Below are positions 17,262 through 55,267 of a stretch of 64,000 nt of DNA, piece after piece. The first letter of the stretch is position 1; each line of letters begins with the position of its first letter. Source of the DNA: Candidatus Cloacimonadota bacterium (GTDB lineage Bacteria > Cloacimonadota > Cloacimonadia > Cloacimonadales > TCS61); NCBI GenBank assembly GCA_030621085.1, contig JAUXIJ010000006.1, positions 3,499 to 67,498 of the forward strand. Direction: 5' to 3'. Position numbers and translations under genes: made by a program. The notes beneath the pieces were generated by a model. That model worked only from the letters and a program-made list of their open reading frames with translations, was not told the origin of the DNA and searched no databases.

Positions 17262-17281
17262 TTTTATTTAATCCCTATATT

Positions 17282-36299: not shown

Positions 36300-36310
36300 A
36301 TAACCCTTTT

Positions 36311-36338
36311 ACCACAGAGCTCACGGAGAGCACAGAGG
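36311..36338 (+). repeat. CAC-N-RAG word
   Basis: ACCACAGAGCTCACGGAGAGCACAGAGG lies directly upstream of the guaA start. Confidence 0.6.
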
Positions 36339-36404
36339 TGATTTGAAATAATTCCAAAATTAAAGAGATGCATTAGTGAGATTATTTCATCCAGAGCAAA
36401 AGTA

Positions 36405-36804
36405 TTGTCATCCTGAGCGAAGTCGAAGGATAAACAATCATTTCCTAATATAATTTTTTGAATGAGAATCATTTTTACATTCTGCCAGTTTGTGCAATAA
36501 ATTAAATTTATCATTAATCAATGCTTCCTTTTTTGCTCTTGTCCAACCCTTTATTTGTCTTTCTGCAGATATTGCATCATAGGCATCTTCGAAATAATCT
36601 GAAAAAATGAGCTTAACTGGTCTTCTATTCTTTGTATAACCTTTGATTGTACCTTGTTGATGCTCTGATATCCTCTTTTCAATATCTGATGTTGATCCAG
36701 TATAATACGATCCATCAGAGCATTTTAAAATATAAACCCAATATGTTTTCATTTCTTTAACCTGATTAAATCATTTGCTCCTTCGACTCCGCTCAGGATG
36801 ACAA
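36405..36804 (-). mobile_element. GIY-YIG gene cassette bracketed by 26-bp inverted repeats (mobility hypothetical)
   Basis: Left IR is TTGTCATCCTGAGCGAAGTCGAAGGA (36405-36430). The reverse complement of the right IR (36779-36804) is TTGTCATCCTGAGCGGAGTCGAAGGA, giving 25/26 identity. The IRs lie 7 and 26 nt from the gene ends. Confidence 0.4.
36438..36752 (-). CDS. GIY-YIG nuclease family protein (small, UPF0213-like)
   Basis: 104 aa starting MKTYWVYILKCSDGSYYTGSTSDIEKRISEHQQG. Confidence 0.85.
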   Translation of the reverse strand: MKTYWVYILKCSDGSYYTGSTSDIEKRISEHQQGTIKGYTKNRRPVKLIFSDYFEDAYDAISAERQIKGWTRAKKEALINDKFNLLHKLAECKNDSHSKNYIRK

Positions 36805-36810
36805 ATGATT

Positions 36811-37410
36811 TTATATATTTCTACAATTCTCCGTGTGCTCTGTGGTTAATATTTTCTTCAAACATTCACTATAAAAAACATGCTCTACAGCCAGTCCTCT
36901 TTGTTCCACTTCTTCCAGAGTTTTGCAATCTGAAATATCTACTTCTTTTTTCGCAATTACCTGTCCGGTATCGAATCCCTCATTCACAAAATGAACAGTG
37001 ACTTTAGTTTTTTCCATCTTATTTTCAAATGCCCATTCATAACCGTGCAAACCTTGATGCAGAGCTGTATCAGCAGGATGGATGTTGATGATCCTGTTTC
37101 TAAACCTCTGAACAACATCAGAACTTAAGATCTTCATATAACCTGCTAAAATAATGTAATCGGGATTCAATTCATCAAGATAATCAAACAGTAATTTATT
37201 GTATGTCGACCGCTTTTTCCCTTTGGATTCTATTACTTTTGTATCGAGCCTAAAACTTTCTGCGATGACCAGCCCAGGAGCATCTTTTTTATTGGAGAAT
37301 ACCACAATAACATCGCAAAGGTCTTTCAGCATTCCGTTTTTTACATTATCCACGATCGCTTTCATATTGCTACCGCGACCGGAAATGAGGATTGCTATTT
37401 TTTTTTTCAT
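36811..37410 (-). CDS. purN: phosphoribosylglycinamide formyltransferase
   Basis: Start moved to ATG 37410 (MKKKIAILISGRGSNM), which is 1 nt after the upstream stop. Has IINIHPA. The last 11 codons read through a CAC-N-RAG word. Confidence 0.85.
   Translation of the reverse strand: MKKKIAILISGRGSNMKAIVDNVKNGMLKDLCDVIVVFSNKKDAPGLVIAESFRLDTKVIESKGKKRSTYNKLLFDYLDELNPDYIILAGYMKILSSDVVQRFRNRIINIHPADTALHQGLHGYEWAFENKMEKTKVTVHFVNEGFDTGQVIAKKEVDISDCKTLEEVEQRGLAVEHVFYSECLKKILTTEHTENCRNI
36829..36846 (-). repeat. CAC-N-RAG word inside the purN 3' end
   Basis: The reverse complement reads ACCACAGAGCACACGGAG, translated as ..TTEHTE.. in purN. Confidence 0.55.
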
Positions 37411-38530: not shown

Positions 38531-39772
38531 CTATGAATTTCGAGTTCCAATATCTCCTCGATAATACTTACCTTCGAATTTAATCAATTCACATTCATTG
38601 TAAACTTTATCTATAGCTTTTCCAAGTGTTTTCTGGTTAACAACAATATTTAACACCCGTCCACCATTTGTAATAATTTTACCATTTGTTTTTTTTGTAC
38701 CTGCGTGGAAAACTAAAGTTTCATCAGATACTTTTTTTAATCCCGATATTTCAATACCCTTTTTATATGCTTTCGGATAACCTTCGGAAGTTAAAACAAC
38801 ATCCACAAAATATCCGTCATTAAATTCCATCTGGAAATCTTTTAAGCTGCCATCAAAACAGGAAAGAACAAGTTCCAGTAAATCTCCTTTAAAAGCAGGT
38901 AACACCACTTCTGTTTCCGGATCTCCGAGCCGAACATTATACTCCAGAACTTTCGGACCGCTCTTCGTAATCATCAAACCGAGATAAATTACACCTTTGT
39001 AATTGAAACTTTCTTCTTTAATTCCTTTAATTGTTTGTATTATGGTTTCTTTCTCTATTCTGTTTTTGATTTCATCAGTATAAAAAGGGACGGGGCAAAA
39101 CGCTCCCATACCACCTGTGTTAGGACCTTTATCTCCATCAAGAAGTTGTTTATGATCTTGTGAAGGAAGAAGAATTTGATAATTTTCACCATCAGTAAAT
39201 GCAAGTATTGAAAGCTCAGAACCGATAAGTTTCTCTTCTATTAGTAATTGAACCTCTTCGCCATATTTTTGTTTCAAATCTAAAAGCGCTTCTTCGGCTT
39301 CCCGGATAGATGAACATACGTAGACACCTTTCCCTGCTGCAAGCCCGTCGTATTTTATGACGCAATTTCCTTTAACTTTTTCGATGAATTTCATAGCAGA
39401 GTTAATGTTATTGAATTGCTCAAAATCTCCTGTTGCCACACCATATTTCTTCATGAAATTCTTGGCGAATATTTTTGAGCCTTCCAGTTGTGCTGCTTTT
39501 TTATCAGGGCCAAACACTTTTATGGATGTATCTGAAAAGTAATCAACAATTCCTCCTACAAGTGGATCTTCCGGTCCCACAATTATTAATTTTATTTTCT
39601 CTGATTCGCAGAAATTTTTAATTCCATCAAAATCATTAACACCTATCGGAACATTTTTTTTCGTTCCCCCATTTCCGGGAATAACATATACTTTTTCTGC
39701 TAATTCACTTTGATTCAGTTTCCAGACAATTGCATGTTCCCTGCCACCTGAACCGATTACGGCAATATTCAT
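38531..39772 (-). CDS. purD: phosphoribosylamine--glycine ligase
   Basis: Starts MNIAVIGSGGREHAIVWKL. Has an ATP-grasp core and GGRVLN. Confidence 0.9.
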   Translation of the reverse strand: MNIAVIGSGGREHAIVWKLNQSELAEKVYVIPGNGGTKKNVPIGVNDFDGIKNFCESEKIKLIIVGPEDPLVGGIVDYFSDTSIKVFGPDKKAAQLEGSKIFAKNFMKKYGVATGDFEQFNNINSAMKFIEKVKGNCVIKYDGLAAGKGVYVCSSIREAEEALLDLKQKYGEEVQLLIEEKLIGSELSILAFTDGENYQILLPSQDHKQLLDGDKGPNTGGMGAFCPVPFYTDEIKNRIEKETIIQTIKGIKEESFNYKGVIYLGLMITKSGPKVLEYNVRLGDPETEVVLPAFKGDLLELVLSCFDGSLKDFQMEFNDGYFVDVVLTSEGYPKAYKKGIEISGLKKVSDETLVFHAGTKKTNGKIITNGGRVLNIVVNQKTLGKAIDKVYNECELIKFEGKYYRGDIGTRNS

Positions 39773-39800
39773 ACTTCTCCTTTCCTACTGCTAATCTTAG

Positions 39801-39913
39801 TTGGTTCAATCGTCCCGATTGAACCATTTCGTTTCTTGAGAATCGTCTCGATCCTATTATCAGAGCGGGACGGTCTGACCCAAACATTTCATTCAATCGG
39901 GACGATTGAACGA
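39801..39913. repeat. 113-bp palindromic REP/MITE-like element, copy 1
   Basis: The termini GTTCAATCGTCCCGATTGAAC and GTTCAATCGGGACGATTGAAC are reverse complements, and each is itself a 9-bp hairpin. 102/113 identical to copy 2 by hand alignment. Confidence 0.8.
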
Positions 39914-39923
39914 GCATCGTTTT

Positions 39924-39942
39924 CCTCCGTGTTCTCTGTGGT
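39924..39942 (-). repeat. CAC-N-RAG word at the purC-purE stop
   Basis: The reverse complement reads ACCACAGAGAACACGGAGG. In the 39946-39924 extension GTTAACCACAGAGAACACGGAGG, the TAA is the purC-purE stop codon. Confidence 0.55.
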
Positions 39943-41327
39943 TAACTATTCCTTATCTCCTTATCTGCTTTGATGAGTGATTCTTTGATGTCTTCTATTT
40001 CATTAATGAATAAATCTTTCAATCTTCTAATATTTAAACTCCTTAGCGCAGCAAGAGCAGCAGAACTAACATCGATTACAGTCATAGCAGGGGTTTTAGA
40101 TGGCATCATTAATGAGGAATTAATATTCACCATCATATCTACTTTATCTTTGAACGGAGGGCAGTTAATAACAGGAATTGCCAGGTTTGCAGCAAGTGCA
40201 CCGCCGAGTCCATTCGATCTTCCGGCAACAGCAATTATACATCCTGGTTCAAGTGAATTATTATAAACTTCAGCTATTTCAGGGATTCGCTCTCCATTCT
40301 TATGTGCCGAAACCACTCTCATATCAACAAAAATATCATATTTATCAAGATGAGATTTAATTTTTTTACTGTGCTCCATATCTTTTGGTGAACCCATAAT
40401 AATTGAAATAAAACCGTCTTTTATCAAGCCTGCCTTCAAGAGTTTATTGTAAATTCGATCTCGAATATCTTCTTCATATACTTCAAACTCTTTTCCAACG
40501 ATCTTTTCATAGATATTTATGTATCGTTTGGAAGCTTCTGCGATCACTTCTTTGGGAAGAACATTAGGTACGATTCCATCCTTTTTATTATTCAGAAGCC
40601 ATTGACGGATATATTCTTTATCCATCGAATCAACTTTCAGAGAGTCTTTATCATAAGCAGATTTATCCCAGAATCTTGATGAATCGGGAGTGTGCATTTC
40701 ATCGATGAGAATTACTTCACCATTAATAATACCGAATTCGTATTTCGTATCGACAAGAATTATTCCTTTTTCAGAAAGCTCCTCTGTTCCGACTTTAAAA
40801 AGTTTTAAAGAAATTTCTTCCATTTTTTGATATATTTCTTTTGTAGTCCAACCCTCTTTTACAATATCTTCCGGAGTTATCTCGCGGTCGTGTTCCTCTT
40901 TTGTTGTGGGAGTTATAATCGGTTTTTCAAATCTTGTATTTTGCGAAAGTCCGTCATTAACTTCAACACCTGAGAAAACTCTCTTTCCCTTTTGATAACC
41001 GCGCCACATCGAGCCAGTTAAGTAGCCTCTCACGATCATCTCTATGCAAATCGGCTTGGCTTCTTTTACCAGACTTATATTAGGATCGATCATCTTGATA
41101 AAATGATTATCTACAATATTTCGCGTTTTCTCAAACCAGTAATTTGTGATTCCGTTGAGAACTGCACCTTTGTTTGGAATCAGATTATTCAGAACATTAT
41201 CGAAACTGGAAATCCTGTCGGAAACGACAATCATCCGCATTTTATCATCGATTCTGAAACTGTCCCGAACTTTACCGGAATGTATTCTTTTAATCTGGGG
41301 TGTAAAGATTTTGTCCAAACAATTCAT
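39942..41327 (-). CDS. purCE: SAICAR synthase fused to PurE-like AIR carboxylase domain (PAICS-like order)
   Basis: The N-terminal ~300 aa are PurC-like (GKVRDSF, VSDRISSFD, LVDTKYEFG). The C-terminal ~150 aa are PurE-like (IIMGSPKDMEH..VVSAHKNGERI..IAVAGRSNGLGGALAANL). Confidence 0.85.
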   Translation of the reverse strand: MNCLDKIFTPQIKRIHSGKVRDSFRIDDKMRMIVVSDRISSFDNVLNNLIPNKGAVLNGITNYWFEKTRNIVDNHFIKMIDPNISLVKEAKPICIEMIVRGYLTGSMWRGYQKGKRVFSGVEVNDGLSQNTRFEKPIITPTTKEEHDREITPEDIVKEGWTTKEIYQKMEEISLKLFKVGTEELSEKGIILVDTKYEFGIINGEVILIDEMHTPDSSRFWDKSAYDKDSLKVDSMDKEYIRQWLLNNKKDGIVPNVLPKEVIAEASKRYINIYEKIVGKEFEVYEEDIRDRIYNKLLKAGLIKDGFISIIMGSPKDMEHSKKIKSHLDKYDIFVDMRVVSAHKNGERIPEIAEVYNNSLEPGCIIAVAGRSNGLGGALAANLAIPVINCPPFKDKVDMMVNINSSLMMPSKTPAMTVIDVSSAALAALRSLNIRRLKDLFINEIEDIKESLIKADKEIRNS

Positions 41328-43122: not shown

Positions 43123-44883
43123 TTAAATTTTGTTCTTATAATTTATCACATAGAAAAGCATTAATTCTTCCAATCTTGTTCCAAAGACCTCAAAATTTAC
43201 AGGTTCTTTGTAATTCTTAACCATCTTTTGTGCTTGAATAAGATTCGATTCGAAAATGTCTTGAATATTCTCAGTTTTTTCCAATTCAAACTTTTTCATA
43301 TTCAGTAATGTGTCGAAATCCAGATTAAGCGGAGTTTGAAATTCCTGCTCATCCAGATGATTCCAATCACCAGTCTGAAAATCTAGTTCATAATACGGAA
43401 GAAAGAGATGACCATTTTCGATGATAAATTTCAACACATTTATGATATAATCAAATTCCTCAATAGAAAGCGTATAATGCAGATTAACCCTGACCCAGCC
43501 AGGTTTGAGTCCTGAATATTTATCCACACCGATAAGACATTGATAATACTTGGAAAGCTCTTCGCTGATACCAAGAAGTGTATGACCATAAGGACCTGCA
43601 CACGAGCAACCCGCACGCGTTTGAATACCGAAGAGATCGTTCATCAATTTTGTTACAAATTTCGGATGAAGAATGCGATCTTTATGTTTGATATTGAATG
43701 GAATTATGTTGATCTTCTTATGAATCTCAGTAGGACCATAGAAAGTAATTCTGTCATTATTTTTGAAATTATCGTAGAATTTTTTTAGAAAATAATGCTC
43801 TACTTCCTCGATATTATTGATCCCGACCTTTTCCTTTAACTGGAAGACCAAAGAAACTTTGATATTCTGCAGAATACCGGGAGTTCCGGGTTTTTCACGG
43901 GTTTCGATATCTTTTACATATTGTTCTCTTTTCTTTGTGACATAATCTACTGTTCCACCAGCAGCGATGGATGGCGGAAGGTCTTTCGGGTAAATATTTT
44001 CGTTAATAATGAGAATTCCGGAAGTTCCGGGACCGCCCAGAAATTTATGTGGTGAAAGAAAAATTGCATCAAAATAACTTTCTTTGTCCTTGTTCATATT
44101 AATCTCGATATAAGGAGCACAGGCAGCAAAATCGAAACAGGCAATTGTATTGTGTTTATGCAGAATTTTGGCAACTTCATAAACGGGAGTTTTAATTCCC
44201 GAAACATTAGAAGCTGCAGAAAAAGAACCGATTTTGGGTCTATTATCATACTTTGGATTAAATACTGTTTTTTCTAGTTTGATAAGATCAAGTTCACCAT
44301 CTTCATTCAAAGGAATTTCAATAACTTCGCAAAGCGTTTGTCTCCACATAATTTCATTGGAATGATGTTCATAAGGTCCTACAAAAACAATAGGTTTTTT
44401 ATTTTCTATATAATCTCTAAGTTCCTTATTGCATTTTGTATTTTGGGGATATCTTTCCAAGCAGCTTTCTAAAAAAGTATTAATACGTTTTTTAGTGGCA
44501 GGAGGCCAGTACACTCCCAGGATTTGCTGAAGTCGAGTAATTCCACCGGTTGTTCCCGATTCTGTAAAGATTATCTTGCCAGTATCACCTGCATTAACAA
44601 TTTTCTTTATAATTCTCTCTGCTTTATGAAGAATTTCCGTCATTGTTTTTCCGGTAAAGTCATCTTCTGTGTGAGTGTTTGCATAATACTGCATCAGGTG
44701 AAGCATATAATTTTCTATCGAAAACAAACACCTTCCACTGGCTGTATAATCCGCATAAATAAGCGGTTTTTCACCGAAAGGTGTTTTGAACATTTTATTA
44801 CGTCCGATGATATCGGATCTGAGCCATTTCAGGTTTTCTACTAATTCTTCAGGTTTCATTATACCTCTATCATTATTTTTCAT
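43123..44883 (-). CDS. class-V aminotransferase / cysteine-desulfurase-fold PLP enzyme, 586 aa
   Basis: Has YADYTASGR, TESGTTGG and FLSPHKFLGGPGTSGIL (PLP lysine). ATGA overlap with the upstream 796-aa ORF. Confidence 0.75.
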   Translation of the reverse strand: MKNNDRGIMKPEELVENLKWLRSDIIGRNKMFKTPFGEKPLIYADYTASGRCLFSIENYMLHLMQYYANTHTEDDFTGKTMTEILHKAERIIKKIVNAGDTGKIIFTESGTTGGITRLQQILGVYWPPATKKRINTFLESCLERYPQNTKCNKELRDYIENKKPIVFVGPYEHHSNEIMWRQTLCEVIEIPLNEDGELDLIKLEKTVFNPKYDNRPKIGSFSAASNVSGIKTPVYEVAKILHKHNTIACFDFAACAPYIEINMNKDKESYFDAIFLSPHKFLGGPGTSGILIINENIYPKDLPPSIAAGGTVDYVTKKREQYVKDIETREKPGTPGILQNIKVSLVFQLKEKVGINNIEEVEHYFLKKFYDNFKNNDRITFYGPTEIHKKINIIPFNIKHKDRILHPKFVTKLMNDLFGIQTRAGCSCAGPYGHTLLGISEELSKYYQCLIGVDKYSGLKPGWVRVNLHYTLSIEEFDYIINVLKFIIENGHLFLPYYELDFQTGDWNHLDEQEFQTPLNLDFDTLLNMKKFELEKTENIQDIFESNLIQAQKMVKNYKEPVNFEVFGTRLEELMLFYVINYKNKI

Positions 44884-47270
44884 AGAAATGGTGTCGATTC
44901 AAAATTATCTTTTCTTAATTGATACCATTTCACCTCAATTTTTAATGTTTCTAAATCTTCATTTAGTTTTTTAATCTTCTCTTTAATATTTTTATTACAG
45001 TTTTTATCTAAAGAAGAAAAAATAACTATATCGGGTTTAATTATTTCTGCCATTTCTTTCATTGTTATAAAATCGTAGTTTCTAAAACCATCAATAGATT
45101 GTTTAATCTCTCCAATAATTAATTTACCATCTTGAATACATACAATATCTAAATCAGTAAAAGGTTCGCTTTTACCTTTCTTAAATATCTCTAATGATGT
45201 ATTATAAATAAATGATGTTCGACTTTCTTCAAGCAATTGACCTAAAACCAAAATAACAGGTGTTAAGCCTTGAAGAGAATATCCTATATGAACAAGACTA
45301 TTTAGCTTATAAAACCAGTTTTCATTTGGTTTGATTGAAAATTTAACTCTACAACCTTTACAGATAATATCTTGTTTAATTTCATCAATATGAAACCATT
45401 GCCCGATCCCGCAACTTGGACAATGAGGTCTAATACCAACTTGGATTATACCTAATTTAATGAATTCTGCTAAAGTTTCCTTCATATTAGAAATAAATTC
45501 TTCTTTTTGATATCCAAGTTTCTCATTATCCTTTATAGAATTAAATTTCTCACAAACCTTTTCAGCTTCTTCTATAAATACATTATATGTTATTTCATTA
45601 TGTAAAGTTACAATATCTCTAGATAATTTCGAAACATAGTCAGTTAGCCAATTCAAACTATCTTTACTCTTTTTGAAGATTTCACTTTTTTTTCTCAATG
45701 CATTCTTAATTTCTTTTCTTTTATTTTTATCTTTCTTAGGATTTACATTCGATAAAATATCGAACATATGACGCCAATAACTAATTTCTAAATACTGTTT
45801 TGCAATAAATAAATCTTTAAAAAGATTTATAAAACCAGACATATATCTTCCTGTGTTCGAAGGCTGAATAAAAGCTAAATTGTCATGTTTTAAGTAACCT
45901 CTTGCATCTGATTTTAATATTGGTTTATCTTCATCTGTTAACAAAAAACGAAATATTTCTGAATCATTTATCAAATTTATCTGAAGATTTTGAAGTTCAC
46001 GTGCTAATAATACTGAAGGAAATCCATTTGAACATATTCTTGATGCAGAATTAAATAAATCATAAGCTAGCCTATTATGTTGAGGTAATTTCCACCACAA
46101 AGTTTTTCCTTGAATATTTGGATAACGTTCAGGACGAAATTGCATATAAATATCAGCGACCCATGATTCACCGCTCATCAAACCTTTTTCAACTTTAGGT
46201 GGATTTAATTTAATCTGAACTTTATCGCCAGTAACTTGGAATGAATCCATTTCACTCGTTATTGAAACAAAATCGCTATTCTCTTTGTATTGTGGCAATC
46301 TGATTTCTTCATATGTACTAATTATTTTTGAAATCGAATTTTTAGTTAACTTCTCAGCAATCTCTTTAAGCTCACTTTCATCAATGCTATAACTAATAAA
46401 TTTTATTCTACAAACTCCAGAAACACTTTGTCTATTTGATAAATTTCTGAACAACTCATACAAACCTTCTTCAAGTTCTTTTGAGGATGCTATTTCTTTG
46501 GGTAACCATATACTATTCAAAGATCTATTTGAATATCTCGTTAATGATAAAATTGAATTCCAGTTGTAAACAATATCTTTTGGTGAATCTCCTATAACAA
46601 CTGTAAAAAATTGATCTGTATCTTCAAATTTAGTTCCTTTTAGGTTGTGCGGAATTGAACAAAATTGAATTGGGAAAACAAAATTATTATTCACACTTAT
46701 TTTTAATAATGCATCGTTTAAAGATTCTCTACTACTTATTTTTATTATATTTTTTCTATTTTTATCCATCTCATAGATGGATATTGTATTTCGAAAAGAT
46801 GAAAAATTTATATAAATAAATTGTTTTAATACAATATCTTCCATTCCATCTGTATCAAGAAGAACAAGTTTGGAATGATATAGCTCATTTAAATTGTATT
46901 CTGATTGCTTAATTGATAAACCATTATAATCACACTTAATATAGTAATCTTCATAATTTTGAATTTCTTGCTCAGGCATTTTTAATGAAATGGGAGAAAG
47001 AAAATTATCAATTTTCTGAATTAAATCCATTTCTAAAGGTAATAAAGATAGAATAATATCTGGATCGAAAGCATTAAGAAACGTCCACCAATCATTTTTA
47101 ACTGTTTTTCCATCAGTAAATATAATAGGATTATAACGTCCTCCCCAAAGATGCAAATTGAAATCAATAACTTTCTGGATTTGGGATAATACATATTTTT
47201 CGGGATTTATTAGAAAAGCTATTCTTAATGGACGTTTTTTAATATATATTGAATAGGGTTCTTGTATCAT
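44880..47270 (-). CDS. 796-aa protein of unknown function with C-terminal zinc ribbon and PD-(D/E)xK-like motif series
   Basis: Uninterrupted ORF, with GGAG 6 nt upstream of the ATG. CPSC-x16-CKGC spans aa 617-640, followed by LLEES (681), FTDLDIV (706/708) and GEIKQS (721-723). I recognised no motif in the first ~600 aa and no Walker A. Confidence 0.6.
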   Translation of the reverse strand: MIQEPYSIYIKKRPLRIAFLINPEKYVLSQIQKVIDFNLHLWGGRYNPIIFTDGKTVKNDWWTFLNAFDPDIILSLLPLEMDLIQKIDNFLSPISLKMPEQEIQNYEDYYIKCDYNGLSIKQSEYNLNELYHSKLVLLDTDGMEDIVLKQFIYINFSSFRNTISIYEMDKNRKNIIKISSRESLNDALLKISVNNNFVFPIQFCSIPHNLKGTKFEDTDQFFTVVIGDSPKDIVYNWNSILSLTRYSNRSLNSIWLPKEIASSKELEEGLYELFRNLSNRQSVSGVCRIKFISYSIDESELKEIAEKLTKNSISKIISTYEEIRLPQYKENSDFVSITSEMDSFQVTGDKVQIKLNPPKVEKGLMSGESWVADIYMQFRPERYPNIQGKTLWWKLPQHNRLAYDLFNSASRICSNGFPSVLLARELQNLQINLINDSEIFRFLLTDEDKPILKSDARGYLKHDNLAFIQPSNTGRYMSGFINLFKDLFIAKQYLEISYWRHMFDILSNVNPKKDKNKRKEIKNALRKKSEIFKKSKDSLNWLTDYVSKLSRDIVTLHNEITYNVFIEEAEKVCEKFNSIKDNEKLGYQKEEFISNMKETLAEFIKLGIIQVGIRPHCPSCGIGQWFHIDEIKQDIICKGCRVKFSIKPNENWFYKLNSLVHIGYSLQGLTPVILVLGQLLEESRTSFIYNTSLEIFKKGKSEPFTDLDIVCIQDGKLIIGEIKQSIDGFRNYDFITMKEMAEIIKPDIVIFSSLDKNCNKNIKEKIKKLNEDLETLKIEVKWYQLRKDNFESTPFL

Positions 47271-47303: not shown

Positions 47304-48113
47304 TATATATTCCACAATATTCATGAATATCTTCAACCCATCTCCATCTTCGGAGATATCAGGATTCTGTCTTTTCATTTGTGACCAATTCGGATGGTTA
47401 TATAAACTGAGAAAAGCTTCGGGATGCGGCATTAAACCGAAAACTTTTCCTGTTTCATTCGTAAGTCCGGCACAATTAAGTTCCGAACCATTGGGATTCA
47501 TTGGATACTTGGAAATCTCTTTACCCTCTTTGTCACAATAAGTTAGACAATTAAGCTTTTTTTCAATTATTTTATTTTTAATTCTTTCATTCTTAATTAT
47601 CAACTTCCCTTCCCCGTGTCGAACCGGAAGAAAGATATTATCAATTCCTTTCAAGAAAGGCGATTTGCTGTTTTCACTCACTTTGCAATAAATCCATCTG
47701 TCCTCAAATTTTCCCGAATTATTTCCCGTAAGCGTAACTTCCTGCTCAAAGTCGGAATTCAAATTCGGAAGAAGTCCCATTTTCACCAAGAATTGGAAGC
47801 CATTACAAACACCCAGAATGAATTTTCCTTCATTTAGAAAATCTTGAATATCATCGAAGAACAATTTTCCGGATTTCAGTTTTTTAAACTTCATTTTATT
47901 GGAAAGAACTTTCCCCGAGCCCAGATCATCTCCGAAAGAGAACCCGCCGGGAAAATTGAGAATATCATAATCGTGGATCGAGCATTTTCCCAGAAAGATA
48001 TCATTTAGATGGACTATTTCTGCTTCAGCACCTGCAAGCTTGTAAGCAGCAGCCATTTCCTCTTCACAGTTTATGCCATAACCGGTAATGATTAATGATT
48101 TAACTTTTTTCAT
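47286..48113 (-). CDS. purQ: FGAM synthase glutaminase subunit
   Basis: Has GVCNGFQFL (nucleophile Cys) and MPHPE. Confidence 0.9.
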   Translation of the reverse strand: MKKVKSLIITGYGINCEEEMAAAYKLAGAEAEIVHLNDIFLGKCSIHDYDILNFPGGFSFGDDLGSGKVLSNKMKFKKLKSGKLFFDDIQDFLNEGKFILGVCNGFQFLVKMGLLPNLNSDFEQEVTLTGNNSGKFEDRWIYCKVSENSKSPFLKGIDNIFLPVRHGEGKLIIKNERIKNKIIEKKLNCLTYCDKEGKEISKYPMNPNGSELNCAGLTNETGKVFGLMPHPEAFLSLYNHPNWSQMKRQNPDISEDGDGLKIFMNIVEYITTERT

Positions 48114-51100
48114 TAATCGAATCCTTTATCCCAGGCTTCCTGCAATTTTTCAATTTCCAATTCAATTAATTTTTTCCCACTTTGATTTACAATCAATTTT
48201 TTCGTTGAATTTACTTTACCAAGAAATAGTGAGTTAGAACTCATTAATTTATCAAACATAGTTTGATTTTCAGATTTTATACTAACCACAAAACGCGAAT
48301 GGGATTCGGAGAAGAGAATTGCATTCAAACTCAAATCTCCCAATTCAGAAACATCCAATTCCGCTCCGAATTCTGTTCCGATCGCACTTTCGCAAACAGC
48401 AACCGTCAATCCACCATCAGAAAGATCATGGCAGGATTCTATCAGATTTTGCTCATTTGCTTTCATAACTTTTTCATACAATCGTTTTGCATTTTCCTTT
48501 CTCACTTTGGGAACATTTGCTCCGAGTTTGTCGAATAATCTATAGAATTCGGAAGCACCAAGCTCATCGTAAGTTTCTCCCAGAATGTAAATCAGGTCAC
48601 CATCTGCTTTGAAGTTGCTCGTAATTGTTTTTCTCACATCAGAAAGCTTAGCAACCATCGAATACAGGATCGTAGGCGGAACTGATATCTTAACTTCTCC
48701 TGCTTTAAAGTCATTCTTCATACTATCTTTGCCGGAAGTCATGGAAATATTATAGAAAACGGACATCTCGAAAAGTGCTTTATTCATCTGTACCAGTTTT
48801 GCAAGTTTCTGTTTTCCATCAGGATTTTTTTCGGGATCAAAAGCGGAATCGGGAACGCAGAAATTATCATTCACAGTCCAGAACCTGTTCGATTTGTCAT
48901 TGATATCAGGAAGCTTTCCGCCGACTGAAATAATTTGACGAATCGCTTCATCGAAGGCTCCAGCACTCATTTCATAAGCATCGATATCCCCGAATTTTGG
49001 GCAGATACCATTTGAGATCGCAATTCCTTCGAAGCTGTTAAAATTCAATCTCATCACAGCCGCATCCTGAGGAGATTTTCCGTCTTCCCCCATCAAAGGT
49101 TTGATGATGGTTTTTCCTTTCACTTCATGATCATATTGACGTATTACATTTTCACGAGAACAGATGTTGTTGCTTCCCATTAGTTTTATTAAAATCTCGT
49201 TGTAATCAAGATTAGAAGGAAGTTCCGGTTCTGAGAGTTCAGGTTTTTTCCATTCGGCTTTCATATATTTTTTTGGAACTCCATTATGCAGAAAATCCAT
49301 TTCCAACAGGATAACTTTTTCATTGTCATATCGTACATCGATAAAACCGGTTGAAGTGAATTCCCCAATATCTGAAAGTTCTACTTCACGCTCTTTTGCA
49401 AGCTTAAAAAGAGCTTCTTTTTTGTCTTCTTCCACCACAAAAGTCATTCTTTCCTGCGATTCTGAAACAAAAATTTCCCAAGGTTTCAGGTTCGCATATT
49501 TCAGCGGAACTTTCTCCAGATGTATTTCCGCTCCACCGGTGATCTCGGCAAGTTCTCCGACGGAGGAAGATAAACCGCCTGCTCCATTATCTGTAGAACA
49601 CTTTATCAAACCTTGTTCAACTGCTTCCTGCATAAAATCTGAAAGCAATTTTTGAGTAATGGGACTTCCAATCTGAACGGCTGATTGCGGAGAATGTTCG
49701 TCTATTTCTGCAGAAGAGAATGTTGCTCCGTGAATTCCGTCTTTGCCAACTCTACCTCCTGCCATAATTATCAGATCACCGTCATCGATAGGTTTTTCCC
49801 AGGAATTAACTCCGGCAAATTTGTATGGCATCACTCCGCCTGTTCCGCAATATACCAGCGGCTTGCCACTGTAGCGATCATCAAAAATGATCGAGCCGTT
49901 CACAGTGGGAATCCCCGATTTATTACCTCCGTCTTCAATCCCGTGACGAACTCCTTCAAAAATTCGTTTGGGATGAAGCTGTCCGGGAAGCAGTTCCTTA
50001 CTATAATCCGGAGGTCCGAAGCAGAGAACATTTGTATTGAAAAGCAGTTTCCCACCACCGATTCCCGTTCCAAGCGGATCGCGATTATTTCCCAGAATTC
50101 CGGTAATCGCTCCACCGTAAGGATCTATCGCAGAAGGCGAATTGTGAGTTTCCACTTTCCACACAAATACCGATTCACCATTGATCTTCACTACTCCAGC
50201 ATTATCTGTAAATATCTTCAAGAGCCAGTTATTACCTGCTTTTTCCAGTCTTTCGCGAATGATCTCGGTAGAACTGCGAATATATGTTTTAAAGAGCGAA
50301 TCGATAGTTTCTTCTTCTCCTGTTTCCAGATTTTTATAATGAATGGAAGCTGAAAATTCTTTGTGTTTGCAATGCTCACTCCAGGTTTGTGCTAGGACTT
50401 CCATTTCACAATCCGTAGGATTTACGGTCAGATTATTTTTCTTACGAATCTTTTTAACTTTCTCATCTGAAAAATAAGACTGGATCGCTTTCATCTCTTC
50501 CAAATTCAGAGACAATAATCTATCCTTGGAAATCTTCAACAATTCATCCTCAGTTACATTCAAATCAACTGTTCCAGTTTTGTTATTTTGTTCAATCCGA
50601 ACTTCGGGAATATAATCTATCTTTCCCGTGAATTTTCCATATTCAAAATGATGAATGAGTTTGTTTCCTAAAAGTTTTTCAGCCAAAGTTTTCAGAATAT
50701 CATCAGATAAATGTTTTTCGATCAGATAAATATCATCAGTAAAAATATGTTGTGTGTTCGTATCCAGATCCAAATCCAGAATATCGTTCGAAGTTTTTTG
50801 AGCTGAAACACCTTCATCATCGGTTACTCCGGGAAGTTTGGAGACAAGAATAAACGATTTGTAGAACGAATCGCTGTAAGAAGAATTTATATAAACATCG
50901 TGGATTATTTCATCTTTTAGTCCAAGATTTGCAAACTTCTGAATATCCTTTTTACTCAAATCGTAGGTGATATTGAAGATCTTTCCCGTTTTTACTTTAC
51001 CAGTTTTTAGATTGAGGAAACTTAATGCGCTTCCCTCTATTTTCTCGCCCTGAACATCGATGATTTTATCTTTTAAAATAAGTTGAATTTGATTTTTCAC
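48113..51100 (-). CDS. purSL: FGAM synthase PurL with N-terminal tandem PurS-like domains
   Basis: Probable GTG start at 51100, after GAGGAA. This gives MKNQIQLILKDKIIDVQGEKIEG.., which aligns with the PurS N-terminus. The track ATG 51172 would overlap the upstream gene by 47 nt. PurL core motifs: SHNHP-like ETHNSPS and DNGAGGLSS. Confidence 0.85.
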   Translation of the reverse strand: MKNQIQLILKDKIIDVQGEKIEGSALSFLNLKTGKVKTGKIFNITYDLSKKDIQKFANLGLKDEIIHDVYINSSYSDSFYKSFILVSKLPGVTDDEGVSAQKTSNDILDLDLDTNTQHIFTDDIYLIEKHLSDDILKTLAEKLLGNKLIHHFEYGKFTGKIDYIPEVRIEQNNKTGTVDLNVTEDELLKISKDRLLSLNLEEMKAIQSYFSDEKVKKIRKKNNLTVNPTDCEMEVLAQTWSEHCKHKEFSASIHYKNLETGEEETIDSLFKTYIRSSTEIIRERLEKAGNNWLLKIFTDNAGVVKINGESVFVWKVETHNSPSAIDPYGGAITGILGNNRDPLGTGIGGGKLLFNTNVLCFGPPDYSKELLPGQLHPKRIFEGVRHGIEDGGNKSGIPTVNGSIIFDDRYSGKPLVYCGTGGVMPYKFAGVNSWEKPIDDGDLIIMAGGRVGKDGIHGATFSSAEIDEHSPQSAVQIGSPITQKLLSDFMQEAVEQGLIKCSTDNGAGGLSSSVGELAEITGGAEIHLEKVPLKYANLKPWEIFVSESQERMTFVVEEDKKEALFKLAKEREVELSDIGEFTSTGFIDVRYDNEKVILLEMDFLHNGVPKKYMKAEWKKPELSEPELPSNLDYNEILIKLMGSNNICSRENVIRQYDHEVKGKTIIKPLMGEDGKSPQDAAVMRLNFNSFEGIAISNGICPKFGDIDAYEMSAGAFDEAIRQIISVGGKLPDINDKSNRFWTVNDNFCVPDSAFDPEKNPDGKQKLAKLVQMNKALFEMSVFYNISMTSGKDSMKNDFKAGEVKISVPPTILYSMVAKLSDVRKTITSNFKADGDLIYILGETYDELGASEFYRLFDKLGANVPKVRKENAKRLYEKVMKANEQNLIESCHDLSDGGLTVAVCESAIGTEFGAELDVSELGDLSLNAILFSESHSRFVVSIKSENQTMFDKLMSSNSLFLGKVNSTKKLIVNQSGKKLIELEIEKLQEAWDKGFD

Positions 51101-51125: not shown

Positions 51126-52244
51126 TCATTTATAGAACAATGAATTACAATTATTACCTTTCGCACAACCATTAATGATATCAGTCAAATCAAAAGGATA
51201 TTTAGCAAAAGGATTTTTTTGAATATTGACATTAACAAGTTGATATAGATTAGCTGGATTATAATCAATTAGCATAAATGCACTAACCTCTTCAAGCTTC
51301 CGTTGTTCATTAATAACGTTTTCTTCGTTTCCAGGAAGAGATGCTGCCCTGATTCCGAAAATTATATCTTCGAAATTTTCAATATTGGCTCTAGCAATGC
51401 AATTTGAAACACATACGATTATAAAAGGTTTTTTTTCTTCATTTATCAAGTTTACATATTTATGATATTTCCCTTCTTTTTCATCTAAAATTGCGTTTAT
51501 AGGTCTATAAGAATGCGCTCCACCACGTAACAATTTCCTATTTAGATGAAATGCTCCTATAGGGAGAACTTCCACAATTAAGTTATAGTTTGTAACAAAT
51601 CTGTTTTCATGATTTCTATTCAAATTGATACTTAACCATGAATCGATATCATTAATAATTACATTTACGCTTTTTATTATCCCATCTTTTACTATTTGCT
51701 TAATTTCAAAATTACTCCTATTGAAATCCAAAGTAATATGATACTTTTTTTCAAGCTTCCTTATCCTTTTAGCAAGTAAAAATATAATAGATTGTTCATA
51801 CTTATAATCATCGTATTTATTCAGTGTAAACACTTCAACAATTGCTTTCTGCTCGTTTTTTTCAATCTCCCAATCTGGGTTATTATTTCCTTTTACTTCA
51901 TACTTTGGTTGAAATTTAACGGAATATCCTAAATTTTGTAAAAAATTTCCCACCAACAGCTCGTGAAAAGAGTTTTGCATATTAAAATCATTTGAGAACA
52001 TATATCCATAGAATTCATGTTTTTTTTCAGAACTTAGATTCACTAAACAATCTGATAAGTTTGAAAAAACTGTTCTGAATAAATTAGAATTTGCTAATAA
52101 ATCTAATTTCATGAACCATTTATTAACATCTTCCACTTCTGATGTATTAATTTTTTCTTCACTTAGTATTGGGTAGGCTAATCTAATCTGATCAACAAGT
52201 TCCAACACTTCACTATGGGATTCTATTTTTTTGTACTTACTCAT
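51126..52244 (-). CDS. 372-aa hypothetical protein, weak PD-(D/E)xK-like spacing
   Basis: SFHELLVG (E95), NNPDWEI (D124) and AIVEVFTLNK (E137) are spaced like a restriction-endonuclease fold. The lysine is not in the canonical E-x-K position. Confidence 0.45.
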   Translation of the reverse strand: MSKYKKIESHSEVLELVDQIRLAYPILSEEKINTSEVEDVNKWFMKLDLLANSNLFRTVFSNLSDCLVNLSSEKKHEFYGYMFSNDFNMQNSFHELLVGNFLQNLGYSVKFQPKYEVKGNNNPDWEIEKNEQKAIVEVFTLNKYDDYKYEQSIIFLLAKRIRKLEKKYHITLDFNRSNFEIKQIVKDGIIKSVNVIINDIDSWLSINLNRNHENRFVTNYNLIVEVLPIGAFHLNRKLLRGGAHSYRPINAILDEKEGKYHKYVNLINEEKKPFIIVCVSNCIARANIENFEDIIFGIRAASLPGNEENVINEQRKLEEVSAFMLIDYNPANLYQLVNVNIQKNPFAKYPFDLTDIINGCAKGNNCNSLFYK

Positions 52245-52300
52245 TTATTACCTATTTTTCTCACATTCATATCGATGAACTCATTTCCCATCGAACTTCA

Positions 52301-52705
52301 TCATTGGAAATTCCGTGTTCGACATTGGATATTCATTTTCCTAGGATCATCCGTTTCTTCCATCCTTTCATATCCAACCTTTGCTAACCAAAGTTTAAAA
52401 GGTTCTGCTTTTGGTGACGGAATGGATTGGATTAATCGTAACAGCGTTTCTGTATCTGCGACATCGGTTAATCGCATTCTGCTGTCTTTTGCTCTCATTT
52501 TCAAAGCGTGACAATTTGTCACGGTTTGACTTCCTTCCTTTATTAATCGTTCTTTCAGCTTTCTCCAATATGCTTGTGGATTTACACTTTGGGTTAATAT
52601 TGAAACAACATCAATAATAGAAAAATACCAAAGCTCCTTGTCTTCATCCCAATGTCTTCTGACATATTTCTTTTTGAAAATTGCTATTGATTTATCTTTT
52701 TTCAA
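52301..52705 (-). CDS. Bro-N domain protein (short)
   Basis: FKKKYVRRHWDEDKELWYFSIIDVVSIL and LLRLIQSIPSPKAEPFKLWLAKVGYERMEE match the Bro-N pattern. The likely start is TTG 52705, after GGGAG. The track ATG 52762 lies in repeat-filled spacer. The last 10 codons lie in a 25-bp repeat, so the protein is possibly truncated. Confidence 0.65.
   Translation of the reverse strand: MKKDKSIAIFKKKYVRRHWDEDKELWYFSIIDVVSILTQSVNPQAYWRKLKERLIKEGSQTVTNCHALKMRAKDSRMRLTDVADTETLLRLIQSIPSPKAEPFKLWLAKVGYERMEETDDPRKMNIQCRTRNFQ
52309..52333. repeat. 25-bp direct repeat, copy 1
   Basis: AATTCCGTGTTCGACATTGGATATT, 24/25 identical to the copy at 52833-52857. Confidence 0.75.
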
Positions 52706-52832
52706 TTTTTCTCCCTTTAGCAATAAAAAATTTAACCATAGAGCACACCCCGATACAGTCATTCTTCCTTACGGGGCAGGCAGAGAGCACAGAGTAAATT
52801 TACAATCTTCAATATTAAATAATCAATTTTTG

Positions 52833-52857
52833 AATTCCTTGTTCGACATTGGATATT
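52833..52857. repeat. 25-bp direct repeat, copy 2
   Basis: AATTCCTTGTTCGACATTGGATATT. With copy 1 it brackets the Bro-N gene. Confidence 0.75.
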
Positions 52858-52971
52858 TATACACCCTTGGTGTATTCATTTCACTATCATTTTGATTGTT
52901 CTCGACTCACACTTCGTAGCAAGTCAAGTCCAATCTGTTTGAATCCATAATATCCGTGTCACCTGCGTTCC

Positions 52972-53016
52972 TTATTATAAAGAAAAGCCTTGCAATGATG
53001 CAATCCATTGCAAGGC
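52972..53016 (-). terminator. terminator of the transglutaminase-like gene
   Basis: Perfect 12-bp stem AGCCTTGCAATG / CATTGCAAGGCT (52985-53016) with an 8-nt loop, followed on the minus strand by UUUCUUAUAAUA. Confidence 0.6.
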
Positions 53017-53026
53017 TATTATCATC

Positions 53027-55267
53027 CTATTTCATTAGGATCATTTTCTTAACTGCAGAGTATTTTCCTGTTTGTAATTTGTAGAAATAAACACCTGAAG
53101 AAACAGCATTCTCATTATCATCTTTCCCGTTCCAAACAATATGATGCAAACCTTCGTTTAATTGATCATTTATAAGAGTTTTTACTTTCTGTCCTTTGAT
53201 GTTAAATATCTCAAGAGTAATAAACGGAGACGTTTGTGTTATAGAAAAAGAAATTGTTGTAGTCGGATTGAATGGATTAGGATAATTTCCAATTAGTTTG
53301 TTCGAGACAATAATTATGTCATCATCAGCATATGTTTCATCATATTCATATAAACTCACACTTCCCTCGATATTCTGAGGATTGTTCAAGCTAAAACCGT
53401 TATCGAAGAATGCATACCATGATTCATCCACCGGGATATCGAATTCAATTGTTCCGCTTCCTGCACATATAATCTCATTGAAAGTATCGAATAACTGCTC
53501 ATTTGAATATAAACCGTAATTCGTTACATCTGTCATAAAACAATTAATTATGCCATCATCGATACCATTATAGAAGTTAGTTCCATCCGTATCATCCATA
53601 ATTATGGCACCGCTGATCACCTGCTTTGGAACAGTGAAATCCACAACCAACCTATAATCATCGACATCATCATTTGGAGCAGGTATAGAAGAGTATTGAA
53701 CTTCCGGCATTGTACCTGCAGCATTCATGGAATACGTGTAAGTTTGCCCGCCAACACTATTCGTTACAATTTCATATACCTGGCTTACATTTATTGGATC
53801 ATTTCCAATTTCGGAATCCATCCTGGCATTATACGTTCTTCCTTCTCCAACAATAAAAGTATATTTTCCTTCTTTATCTGTATATCCCCAGTTATCCCAA
53901 TACGGCCAACTCGGTACTTTAAGTGTAATTTTTGCACCATCGATAGGATCCCCATTATTATCTAATGCGTAAATAATAATAGTTGCAATTGAATCCGAAT
54001 AAGTTTCAGTAACCGGTGTAAGATAACCATTACTTTTAATTTCGAATACAGAAGCAAAACTCCATCCCCATCCATTTTCATAAACCAGCGGATTATTTAT
54101 GGAATTATTTACCGGTTCCCAATGTATCCATTCTTCATCCCAGAATTCGTTCCACGTATGATCGCTGGAAATGGCTAAAATACTTGTGCATGGTATAAGA
54201 GCCGCACGCGCAGCTGCTGCAGTTATATCTGCATGTTCTCCGCATCTTCCTATATGTTTTCTATAGATACGAACAGGTTGATGCGGACGTTCGTTGTTCG
54301 ATGTAAAAGTCATTGAAGCATTGATCCAATCGGTTATAATATGTATCGCTGTATCGGTAGTTCCACCGGATTCATCCCAAACAATAGTACAATTAGCCAG
54401 TTCATCTTCCAGAACAGGATATCCTGCATCGGCAATGCATAAGAGGAATTGTCTCCAAAACTTTCCTGTTGGAGGAAGAGCAATATTATTGTTATGTGTA
54501 TTATTATTCTCAATTATGTCGGGATCTATATATGCCGGAATTTCATCGGTTATTTTAGTATGAACCATGTACATATAGTAAATTTCTTTTGGAACCTCAA
54601 CTTCAACTGTATTTCCCAATTCATCTATCTTCCAATATTTAATTGTAGAATAATAGTTTTCATCTGTTGCAGATGAACCATAATCAATAATTTCGACGTA
54701 TCCAAGACTATTATCTGCTTGATATATCAACACTGCATTAAAGAAAAACAAATCGGGATTACAGTATTGCGAGCTGAGTAATTCCGGTGAACAATGCGCT
54801 ACTACATAAGCTACTTCATCAATATAGGGATCGAACGAATTGTTGATAACATCTCCCCAAACCTGCTGTAGATCTGTTGAAAGTTGAAGGAAAGTGTTTT
54901 CCAGGGCTGGTCGAAGCCATTTTGGAGCTTTGTTAAGAGCTTCCAGAGCTTCCGGTTCTAAAGATTCACAACTTGAGAACAGTGATATTTCTTCTACACT
55001 ATTATCATAAAATACGCCAAGATGAATTCCGGGTTGAATGTATGAATTGAAATTCAATGAATCCACCAGAAGCCAGTTTTCCCTTGTTAGGGTAGTGGTT
55101 TTCTGCTGTTGTCTTGTTAATGATGGTGAATAAGTTCGTGCACTTCCGATAACCTCTAATTTACCTGGAGTGAGAATTTTATTTGTAAGACCTCTCACTT
55201 CCTCTGAATTGAGTGCTGTTGCAGTTAGCACAACGATAAGCATGAAAAAAACAAATTGCTTTTTCAT
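53027..55267 (-). CDS. secreted transglutaminase-like protein with T9SS-type C-terminal sorting domain
   Basis: Signal peptide present. GRCGEHADITAAAARAALIPC..SSDHTWNEFW is the Cys-His-Asp transglutaminase core. C-terminal NYPNPFNPTTTISFSI..SGVYFYKLQTGKYSAVKKMILMK. Confidence 0.75.
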   Translation of the reverse strand: MKKQFVFFMLIVVLTATALNSEEVRGLTNKILTPGKLEVIGSARTYSPSLTRQQQKTTTLTRENWLLVDSLNFNSYIQPGIHLGVFYDNSVEEISLFSSCESLEPEALEALNKAPKWLRPALENTFLQLSTDLQQVWGDVINNSFDPYIDEVAYVVAHCSPELLSSQYCNPDLFFFNAVLIYQADNSLGYVEIIDYGSSATDENYYSTIKYWKIDELGNTVEVEVPKEIYYMYMVHTKITDEIPAYIDPDIIENNNTHNNNIALPPTGKFWRQFLLCIADAGYPVLEDELANCTIVWDESGGTTDTAIHIITDWINASMTFTSNNERPHQPVRIYRKHIGRCGEHADITAAAARAALIPCTSILAISSDHTWNEFWDEEWIHWEPVNNSINNPLVYENGWGWSFASVFEIKSNGYLTPVTETYSDSIATIIIYALDNNGDPIDGAKITLKVPSWPYWDNWGYTDKEGKYTFIVGEGRTYNARMDSEIGNDPINVSQVYEIVTNSVGGQTYTYSMNAAGTMPEVQYSSIPAPNDDVDDYRLVVDFTVPKQVISGAIIMDDTDGTNFYNGIDDGIINCFMTDVTNYGLYSNEQLFDTFNEIICAGSGTIEFDIPVDESWYAFFDNGFSLNNPQNIEGSVSLYEYDETYADDDIIIVSNKLIGNYPNPFNPTTTISFSITQTSPFITLEIFNIKGQKVKTLINDQLNEGLHHIVWNGKDDNENAVSSGVYFYKLQTGKYSAVKKMILMK

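Follow-up and report, generated by a model that had tools for sequence, protein, structure and literature searches.

The purine cluster of a Candidatus Cloacimonadota bacterium, studied here in a 64,000-nt stretch of contig JAUXIJ010000006.1 (the window), contains a slot between a type IX secretion system (T9SS) cargo gene and the fused purS-purL gene (purSL). The slot is occupied by a short open reading frame (ORF) with a Bro-N domain and by a gene for a 372-aa protein. Our analysis suggests that it is old, vertically inherited and unstable, and that it probably holds a DinD-like gene truncated by a repeat word beside an unrelated gene with a nuclease-type predicted fold, rather than a freshly arrived cassette flanked by att sites. 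The Bro-N gene of the window corresponds to the leading ~124 codons of a DinD-like (PDC-S13) gene for a protein of ~280 aa, and the DNA that replaces its 3′ half is one of two copies of a ~40-nt word.

The Bro-N ORF matches the Pfam domain PF02498 over profile positions 4-92 of 96 (E=2.6e-9; 38 bits, cut-off 25.6). Two longer profiles are matched in their N-terminal part only: the PADLOC candidate PDC-S13 at positions 2-124 of 286 (E=1e-61) and phrog_15286 at positions 2-123 of 274 (E=1.6e-47). The alignment to the family ends at the residues ...EETDDP, and at ~52335 the DNA turns into the repeat word; the C-terminal DinD-like half (KGYS..WINQRLK..NLRDNMT.LELVLNMLAE..) is missing from the window copy. 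An earlier, sequence-only reading of this DNA had taken the Bro-N gene for a possible truncated remnant whose last 10 codons lie in the downstream copy of a direct repeat. Both points are borne out: the profiles and a DNA alignment across the break place the end of the homology exactly at that copy, and the last 10 codons and the stop (MNIQCRTRNFQ; ORF end 52301) come from it. At the other end, the first 19 codons of the ORF as listed have no homology to the family. Translation most likely begins with the TTG codon at 52705, which has a GGGAG ribosome-binding site; both are conserved in the related contigs L008, L009 and L220.

The Bro-N gene belongs to a very large family. A word-indexed search returned more than 8000 proteins above threshold, at 63-80% identity, and the family is present in at least 591 genome loci of Patescibacteria, Bacteroidota, Firmicutes, Proteobacteria, Elusimicrobia, Cloacimonadota and others. 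Eighty of these loci were kept for comparison, and in 70 of them the gene is 262-294 aa long. The half that is missing from the window, as read in intact relatives, matches NCBIfam PRK11525 (DinD, DNA damage-inducible protein D) at ~5e-7; since the family scores 29 bits against an equivalog cut-off of 242 bits, it is DinD-like rather than DinD, and its relationship to the E. coli protein is distant. What the window gene shares with PDC-S13 and phrog_15286 is the N-terminal ~124 residues, at the same high identity across phyla, and L219 and L220 have intact orthologues in this place; it differs from them in lacking the entire DinD-like half and in ending in word-read codons. With the Bro-N antirepressors of phages and integrative and conjugative elements (ICEs), such as BRO and KilAC/Ant-like proteins, it has the common Pfam domain, but its subfamily is essentially cellular and the partner domain is DinD-like, not KilAC/ANT. 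Among 50,697 phage records, 4 contain a relative, in each case a short fragment without annotation, and no prophage or ICE genes were seen in the gene tables around the locus. The locus matches no validated anti-phage system: PADLOC gives the candidate PDC-S13, for the Bro-N stump only, and the context is a purine cluster. A name search of the literature on PDC-S13, or on DinD with Bro-N, found nothing relevant. A truncated Bro-N gene in L020 was considered as a parallel case and rejected, because its internal deletion is unrelated to the word.

The history of the slot was read from the lineage contigs L001, L002, L003-L007 (of the window type), L008, L009, L210/L219 and L220/L221. In L219/L210, whose purSL has 83% aa identity to that of the window, a different T9SS cargo gene is followed by an intact 279-aa Bro-N/DinD-like gene and a 363-aa homologue of the 372-aa gene. 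L220/L221 (purSL 88%, T9SS gene 90%) carry the upstream word, an intact 279-aa Bro-N gene and a 352-aa homologue. The window and L003-L007 have the order word, Bro-N stump, word, 372-aa gene; L009 and L008 (purSL 90%) pass from a Bro-N stump directly to purSL and have no 372-aa gene; and in L001 and L002 (purSL 88.5% for L001) the terminator is followed after ~30 nt by the 372-aa homologue, with neither Bro-N nor word. The presence of both genes, with Bro-N intact, at the same position in L219 and L220/L221 indicates that they are old residents and no recent arrival, and their occurrence one without the other in sister genomes argues that they are functionally independent. Within 4 kb of the 80 Bro-N loci, no 372-family gene was found (0/80); this and the separate losses speak against a two-gene system of Bro-N and the 372-aa gene. 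The sequence-only reading had pictured a compact cassette of the two, parked at the head of a housekeeping operon. Comparison of the orthologous loci contradicts it on both counts: both genes keep their place in front of purSL across the lineage, and each stands alone in some sister genomes (the 372-aa gene in L001 and L002, the stump in L008 and L009).

The point of truncation is well defined. In the cross-break DNA alignment, the window, L009, L220 and L219 are collinear up to GATGATCCTGARAAA (codon ~124); past it, the window and L009 run into GAATATCCAATRTCGAACACGRAATTTCCAATRATGAAG, whereas L220 and L219 stay in the reading frame. The identical junction in the window and L009 points to a single truncation event predating their split, and the tail codons, read from the word in different frames in these two genomes, are junk. 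In the most parsimonious history, the ancestor would have carried both genes upstream of purSL, with the word already upstream of the Bro-N gene, as seen in L220. Before the window genome and L009 diverged, a second copy of the ~40-nt word would have arrived after Bro-N codon ~124, with loss of the 3′ half, and later, separate deletions would have removed the stump in L001 and L002 and the 372-aa gene in L008 and L009. The resulting Bro-N-domain-only ORF runs 10 junk codons into the word, and the 25-bp repeat is the two word copies.

The minus strand carries every gene of the region, in the transcription order IMP dehydrogenase (IMPDH), purM, T9SS cargo gene, Bro-N ORF, 372-aa ORF, purSL and purQ (Table 1). 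At >=90% identity, the IMPDH clusters with MBC8416169.1, a protein listed under 'Candidatus Cloacimonetes/Cloacimonadota bacterium', which agrees with the source of the DNA. Gene calls and domain matches confirm the layout described earlier, including the 25-nt gap between the stop of the 372-aa gene and the purSL GTG; this start was set by homology, and the 995-aa purSL product that it gives is backed by the gene calls of L001, L003, L008 and L009. The spacer from the T9SS terminator to Bro-N measures ~280 nt. It had been described as some 260 bp of repeat words; the words are there, as a patchwork of lineage-typical intergenic words and no tandem array. At 52748-52776, a small CCCCG...CGGGG hairpin interrupts one of them, TTTACTCTGTGCTCTC...TGTGCTCTATGGTTAAA. 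Such hairpins sit inside repeat words at places that vary between genomes (in L009 at ~2607-2640) and have the look of additional, very small insertions. No terminator was found between the hairpin at 52986-53017 and purSL. Together with the short gaps, this makes it plausible that Bro-N and the 372-aa gene are co-transcribed with purSL from the spacer upstream of Bro-N. The gene before the slot, a T9SS-secreted transglutaminase-like cargo gene, is itself enclosed in the purine cluster, after purM and before purSL; in its place, L219 has a cargo gene with CarboxypepD_reg, Laminin_G_3 and Por_Secre_tail.

Table 1. Features of the slot between the T9SS cargo gene and purSL, in order of transcription (window positions).
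Feature	Position	Strand	Remarks
T9SS cargo gene	53027-55267	-	Transglut_core, FlgD_ig and Por_Secre_tail matches
Intrinsic terminator of the T9SS gene, hairpin and T-run	52986-53017	-	13-bp stem with 6 GC pairs; kept in L009 and L220
Repeat word, upstream copy (part A: AAATATCCAATGTCGAACAAGGAATT)	52833-52858	-	Upstream 25-mer of the sequence-only reading
Lineage-typical words 3′ of part A: AAAATTGATTATTTAATATTGAAG, then TTTACTCTGTGCTCTC...TGTGCTCTATGGTTAAA	52731-52832	-	Aligned to the copies in L008, L009 and L210/L220
Bro-N ORF as listed	52301-52762	-	PF02498, E=2.6e-9
Family-homologous Bro-N part, TTG start 52705, ~124 codons, complete Bro-N domain	52336-52705	-	PDC-S13 and phrog_15286 profiles
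Repeat word, downstream copy (parts A and B1: GAATATCCAATGTCGAACACGGAATTTCCAATGATGAAG)	52296-52334	-	Replaces the 3′ half of Bro-N
372-aa gene, rare family, predicted PD-(D/E)xK-like core	51126-52244	-	Family alignment, AlphaFold2 model
purS-purL fusion, GTG start 51100	48113-51100	-	PurS, FGAR-AT_linker, AIRS and AIRS_C matches

The direct repeat at 52309-52333 and 52833-52857, reported earlier as a 24/25 match, is real and extends to 26/28 (52309-52336 and 52833-52860). At up to 3 mismatches these are its only copies in the window, and 100 shuffles gave none. The repeat is part of a ~40-nt word, GAATATCCAATRTCGAACA-nGGAATnTCCAATnATGAAG, with the 19-nt core GAATATCCAATRTCGAACA, and the word is built of 7-nt units (GAATATC-CAATATC-GAACAAG-GAATGTC-CAATGAT-GAAG). 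Copies of the core were found in no fewer than 120 metagenome stretches (L090-L209), 80 of which, with G+C contents of 33-63%, were examined. In almost every case AGGAATnTCsAATnnTGAAG comes next, and the shared sequence ends at ~40 nt. In the examined loci, copies lie mostly outside long ORFs, and 26 of the 80 have a second copy, often inverted and 20-100 nt away. Inverted pairs form long hairpins, for example in L149 (1495-1640; -72 kcal/mol, z = -13) and L122 (1610-1710; -37 kcal/mol, z = -7). In L133 (1679-2114) and L135, inverted word copies lie 6-7 nt from both ends of a 23S_rRNA_IVP (PF05635) gene. With tblastn, none of the 80 examined metagenome loci showed a Bro-N relative, and the core was found in none of 80 loci with Bro-N genes from other phyla and in none of 2.9 million viral contigs. 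Rfam holds no family for the locus or the whole window, and the hairpin-bearing metagenome loci gave only spurious sub-threshold matches to miRNA precursors. A literature search by sequence string found no paper on the word, and one on intervening-sequence (IVS) or four-helix-bundle flanks found nothing relevant.

The sequence-only reading had left two options for the 25-mer, an att-like duplication or a generic intergenic word, and the second is what was found. The word recurs at many unrelated intergenic sites without Bro-N, and no copy stands at the Bro-N-less sites of L001 and L002, which rules out an att site or target-site duplication. The likeness to these, and to integron attC sites, is that two direct copies bracket a gene; no integrase was seen in the gene tables, and the window arms are solo and direct. 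A superficial likeness to attC is that the word elsewhere is usually an imperfect palindrome of ~100-150 nt, but the arms of these palindromes are far longer and better paired. The R''/R' core sequences of attC are RYYYAAC / GTTRRRY, and ATCGAAC / GTTCGAT in the word leaves them unmatched. attC was dropped after a poor match by eye, as were the purine regulator boxes of B. subtilis (PurBox) and E. coli (PurR box). The PF05635 flanks in L133 and the long near-perfect hairpins elsewhere recall the IVS of 23S rRNA (a PF05635 gene between inverted repeats), repetitive extragenic palindromes (REPs) and miniature inverted-repeat transposable elements (MITEs), from which the window copies differ in being solo, direct and away from rRNA, with no Rfam match. 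The palindromic two-arm structure of IVS or MITEs is present in L149 and L122 and absent from the window: here the copies are solo arms on the same strand, with no inverted partner at up to 3 mismatches, and their folding is no more stable than that of shuffled sequence (z = -1.0 and -0.6). ATATCCAATGTCGAAC is the only fully conserved mid-spacer block across the window, L220 and L009, which points to constraint or homogenisation.

A further word, CTCYGTG(n)CTCTGTGGTTAA, also recurs in intergenic DNA, at 36308-36328(-), 36829-36849(+) and 39925-39945(+) in the window, at 3135-3170 in L009 and at 405-435 in L008; the words at window 36308, 36829 and 39925 have the related form CTCYGTG...GTGGTTAA. 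Several times it stands 10-40 nt upstream of a start codon, namely those of Bro-N, of purSL in L009 and L008, and of the window gene starting at 36299, and it is possible that it acts as a leader or promoter module.

Selection on the Bro-N stump was assessed with Nei-Gojobori estimates. Between the window and L008, dN/dS is 0.034 at a dS of 0.39, with 18 synonymous and 3 non-synonymous differences where ~70 non-synonymous ones would be expected neutrally; between the window and L009, it is 0.18 at a dS of ~0.96. The corresponding values are 0.09-0.11 for purSL (window vs L001 and L009) and 0.32-0.37 for the 372-aa gene (among window, L001 and L002). Since the stump is still under purifying selection, we infer that its product is a small protein with a Bro-N domain, probably DNA-binding or regulatory, and that the stump is not a dead pseudogene. 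The central Bro-N domain (window 52450-52600, codons ~35-80; L009 2830-2960; L220) occurs in two forms, QSVNPQAYWRKLKERLIKEGSQTVTNCHALKMRAKDSRM and DSNRPRRYWNDLKTKLKQEGSELSDKIGHLKMKAQDGRM, both also present in the wider family (P0086, P0028). These central ~40 codons are shuffled among the genomes: the window resembles L008, and L009 resembles L220. As the forms are distributed independently of the truncation state, the gene appears to be mosaic or recombining, and gene conversion could mimic constraint.

The second gene of the slot encodes a protein with no significant match in Pfam, NCBIfam, PADLOC or PHROGs. Its family is small: a word-indexed search found 3 proteins, and an exhaustive HMMER search of 1.84 billion sequences found 19 representatives at E<=1e-3. 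In the alignment of these 19 members (A3), P123, D124, V138, K259 and N344 are invariant and E95, G99, Y263 and A347 nearly so. All members have E or D at position 137, and position 139, the site of the canonical (D/E)xK lysine, is F, L, V or T family-wide. An AlphaFold2 (AF2) model based on this alignment reached a predicted local distance difference test score (pLDDT) of 81.2 and a predicted template modelling score (pTM) of 0.83; a run with 3 sequences gave a pLDDT of 41.8 and was set aside. The model has a helix at 87-104 (E95), strands at 108-111, 125-129 (P123-D124) and 132-140 (E137), and a helix at 147-162, an order that places E95, D124 and E137 as in the PD-(D/E)xK core. The protein would thus share with that superfamily a predicted alpha-beta-beta-beta-alpha core with a glutamate in helix 1, P-D at strand 2 and an acid in strand 3. 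It differs in the replaced lysine, in the lack of a significant match, and in extra terminal regions with invariant residues of their own (N-terminal helical; C-terminal alpha/beta, with K259 and N344, and the nearly invariant Y263).

The top PDB matches of the model in Foldseek include PspGI, Cdn1, the arenavirus L endonuclease, the R2 restriction-like endonuclease, McrBC, Bax1, Hjc, HincII, SSO0001 (Cas4) and AF1548, and we take most of the top 50 to be PD-(D/E)xK nucleases. The viral library gives the same picture, with matches that include DUF2726, Holliday junction resolvase, endonuclease I, Cas4, and the PA protein of orthomyxoviruses and L protein of bunyaviruses. The model thus suggests a new divergent family with a predicted PD-(D/E)xK fold that resembles known nucleases weakly, for which Mg-dependent nuclease catalysis is plausible. 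The spacing E95..D124..E137 without a canonical lysine, pointed out in the sequence-only reading, stands up as to positions, conservation of the acids and family-wide absence of the lysine; the fold behind it is seen in the order of the predicted elements, with weak structural matches, and no known non-nuclease family was matched.

The 372-aa gene evolves fast and stands apart from its surroundings. Its G+C content is 26-30%, against 33-45% in the neighbours. Two allele types occur at the purSL locus: type 1 in the window, L001 and L002 (74-81% identical) and type 2 in L219 and L220 (64%), with 38-44% identity between types. Between the window and L220 (gene at 16474-17532), the 372-aa-family gene is 38% identical, whereas purSL is 88% and the T9SS gene 90% identical, and the L220 flanks are as close to the window as the L001 flanks. 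This conflict between the gene tree and the flank tree argues for allele replacement or a long-lived (trans-species) polymorphism. Distant homologues were viewed in their context at three loci. The one in L213 adjoins an operon of the cyclic oligonucleotide-based antiphage signalling system (CBASS; SMODS and Cap15), that in L212 adjoins a Schlafen/AlbA_2-HATPase gene, and that in L216 follows a PDC-S35-like gene upstream of DUF3467 and secDF. A conserved partner was discounted, as the upstream neighbours in L212 (220 aa) and L216 (249 aa) are unlike Bro-N and unlike each other. No phage relatives of the family were found in the phage collection or the viral contigs. Taken together, these traits fit an accessory, conflict-type gene, which may be a defence effector or a selfish nuclease.

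A recently integrated mobile or defence cassette of Bro-N and the 372-aa gene, with the 25-bp repeat as its att or target-duplication ends, would agree with the match of the Bro-N N terminus to a PADLOC defence candidate, with the absence of the segment from some relatives and with the low G+C of the 372-aa gene. We regard it as highly improbable: the repeat brackets the Bro-N stump only and not both genes, it is generic, unlinked to Bro-N and without a copy in Bro-N-less relatives, both genes stand at the same position where purSL is only 83% identical, they were lost independently, and no integrase or transposase was seen in the gene tables of the locus. The repeat could also consist of two functional cis-elements (promoter, operator or RNA processing) serving Bro-N and 372-aa/purSL, with the duplication under selection. 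ATATCCAATGTCGAAC is the only invariant mid-spacer block in three genomes at a synonymous divergence of 0.4-1.0, transcription must restart past the T9SS terminator, and in L009 the word, then CTCCGTG...GTGGTTAAA, lies directly before the purSL start, as before Bro-N. Yet no excess of sigma-70-type promoters was found, L219 has no word in its T9SS-to-Bro-N and Bro-N-to-363-aa spacers and L001 and L002 have none at all, and all three keep their genes; the solo arms fold like shuffled sequence, and the word elsewhere mostly forms hairpins from inverted pairs. On balance, selection for duplicated cis-elements seems unlikely to us. Somewhat less unlikely is that the Bro-N stump is a non-functional, not-yet-decayed pseudogene whose purifying signal is an artefact of gene conversion from intact paralogues. 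The loss of the whole DinD-like half, the junk tail in frames that differ between the window and L009, the still shorter cut in L008, the absence of the gene from L001 and L002 and the central mosaic between alleles all speak for this; the low dN/dS values against L008 and L009, the ribosome-binding site and TTG start kept in four genomes, and the full Pfam Bro-N domain speak against it. For the neighbouring gene, we consider it doubtful that the product is a free-standing homing-type selfish endonuclease that keeps its slot by cutting empty alleles, and no defence effector. Presence/absence polymorphism at one fixed intergenic position, alleles discordant with the flanks, a nuclease-type predicted fold, PDDEXK_3 and GIY-YIG genes in other polymorphic slots of the same cluster and a Pithovirus 'Group I intron putative endonuclease' among the weak fold matches are what such a gene might show. 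Against it, no significant similarity of the protein to a homing endonuclease family was found, its nuclease activity is putative, one locus family was examined, the distant homologues adjoin defence genes, and cleavage of the empty site is hypothetical.

Several observations weigh against the reading that we prefer, an old and unstable slot with a word-truncated but still selected DinD-like gene and an unrelated conflict-type gene with a nuclease fold. L008 is cut elsewhere, at codon ~98, by a related word combination, and the second word copy may have come by insertion, duplication or recombination. The low dN/dS of the stump is based on few sites, and conversion by intact paralogues at other places in the genome could also produce it. 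As to the 372-aa protein, PDB sequence searches with the family profiles A2 and A3 returned noise only, and Foldseek searches of the model against PDB and BFVD gave nothing at E<=1e-3; the best E values were 0.004-0.02, with global TM-scores of ~0.15 and local superpositions of 54-77 columns at a probability of up to 0.9. A weak Cas4 Pfam match appeared in only 1 of the 19 members (E=0.008). No family member matches PADLOC, and the distant contexts inspected were only the three loci L212, L213 and L216. With the canonical lysine absent family-wide, the protein could be catalytically inert. BamHI and BglII likewise lack the (D/E)xK lysine, so its absence is compatible with activity, and the invariant K259 may substitute for it.

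Beyond the slot before purSL, the purine cluster (window 34500-58000; L001, L009, L219, L220-L222) has several polymorphic slots between genes. The IMPDH/purM slot holds a PDDEXK_3 gene in L220-L222 and is empty in the window, and the purSL/purQ slot holds a 505-aa unknown gene in L009. Between purQ and the aminotransferase gene, the window has a 796-aa ORF (44880-47270) with no Pfam or PADLOC match, and L001 and L219 have an ATPase_2 gene; the purH/purCE and purD/purN slots carry PDDEXK_3 genes in L001 and L219. At 36438-36752 (-), between two larger genes, the window has a 104-aa GIY-YIG gene (PF01541, E=2.9e-20). It is bracketed by inverted copies of GTCATCCTGAGCGAAGTCGAAGGA (~36408-36435 and ~36781-36806), and this pair is itself bracketed by inverted CTCCGTG.GCTCTGTGGTTAA words (36308 and 36829), so that the arrangement looks like a nested small-gene insertion (window 36296-36850). 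At 39780-39925, in the spacer between a 413-aa ORF (38531-39772) and a 461-aa ORF (39942-41327), inverted CAATCGTCCCGATTGAAC copies enclose a spacer with no gene inside, and this patch adjoins a CTCCGTG...GTGGTTAA word.

Taken alone, the locus is a modest case: at the head of a purine operon stand a decayed gene of DinD-like type and an ORFan of predicted nuclease fold, as yet uncharacterised. As an example of gene truncation by a generic intergenic word it is clean and dated, since the junction is defined and sister genomes keep the intact ancestral state. The 372-aa family is a defined rare family with a conserved E/D/E triad without the canonical lysine, and its arms-race-like behaviour (allele replacement, defence-gene neighbours elsewhere) would fit a defence or selfish role. 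The most interesting loose end of the locus is its pointer to a widespread 40-nt palindromic word that has no Rfam family. A wider possibility, which we hold only tentatively and think rather improbable as a whole, joins these threads: the word would be an arm of an undescribed, very widespread and mobile IVS-like palindromic element that cut the DinD-like gene, and the 372-aa, GIY-YIG and PDDEXK_3 proteins would be selfish or defence nucleases that exchange alleles at fixed operon slots. If this is true, the hairpin element of the word, sometimes with a four-helix-bundle gene, would enter intergenic and even coding DNA, and free-standing nucleases would colonise the intergenic slots of essential operons in Cloacimonadota.

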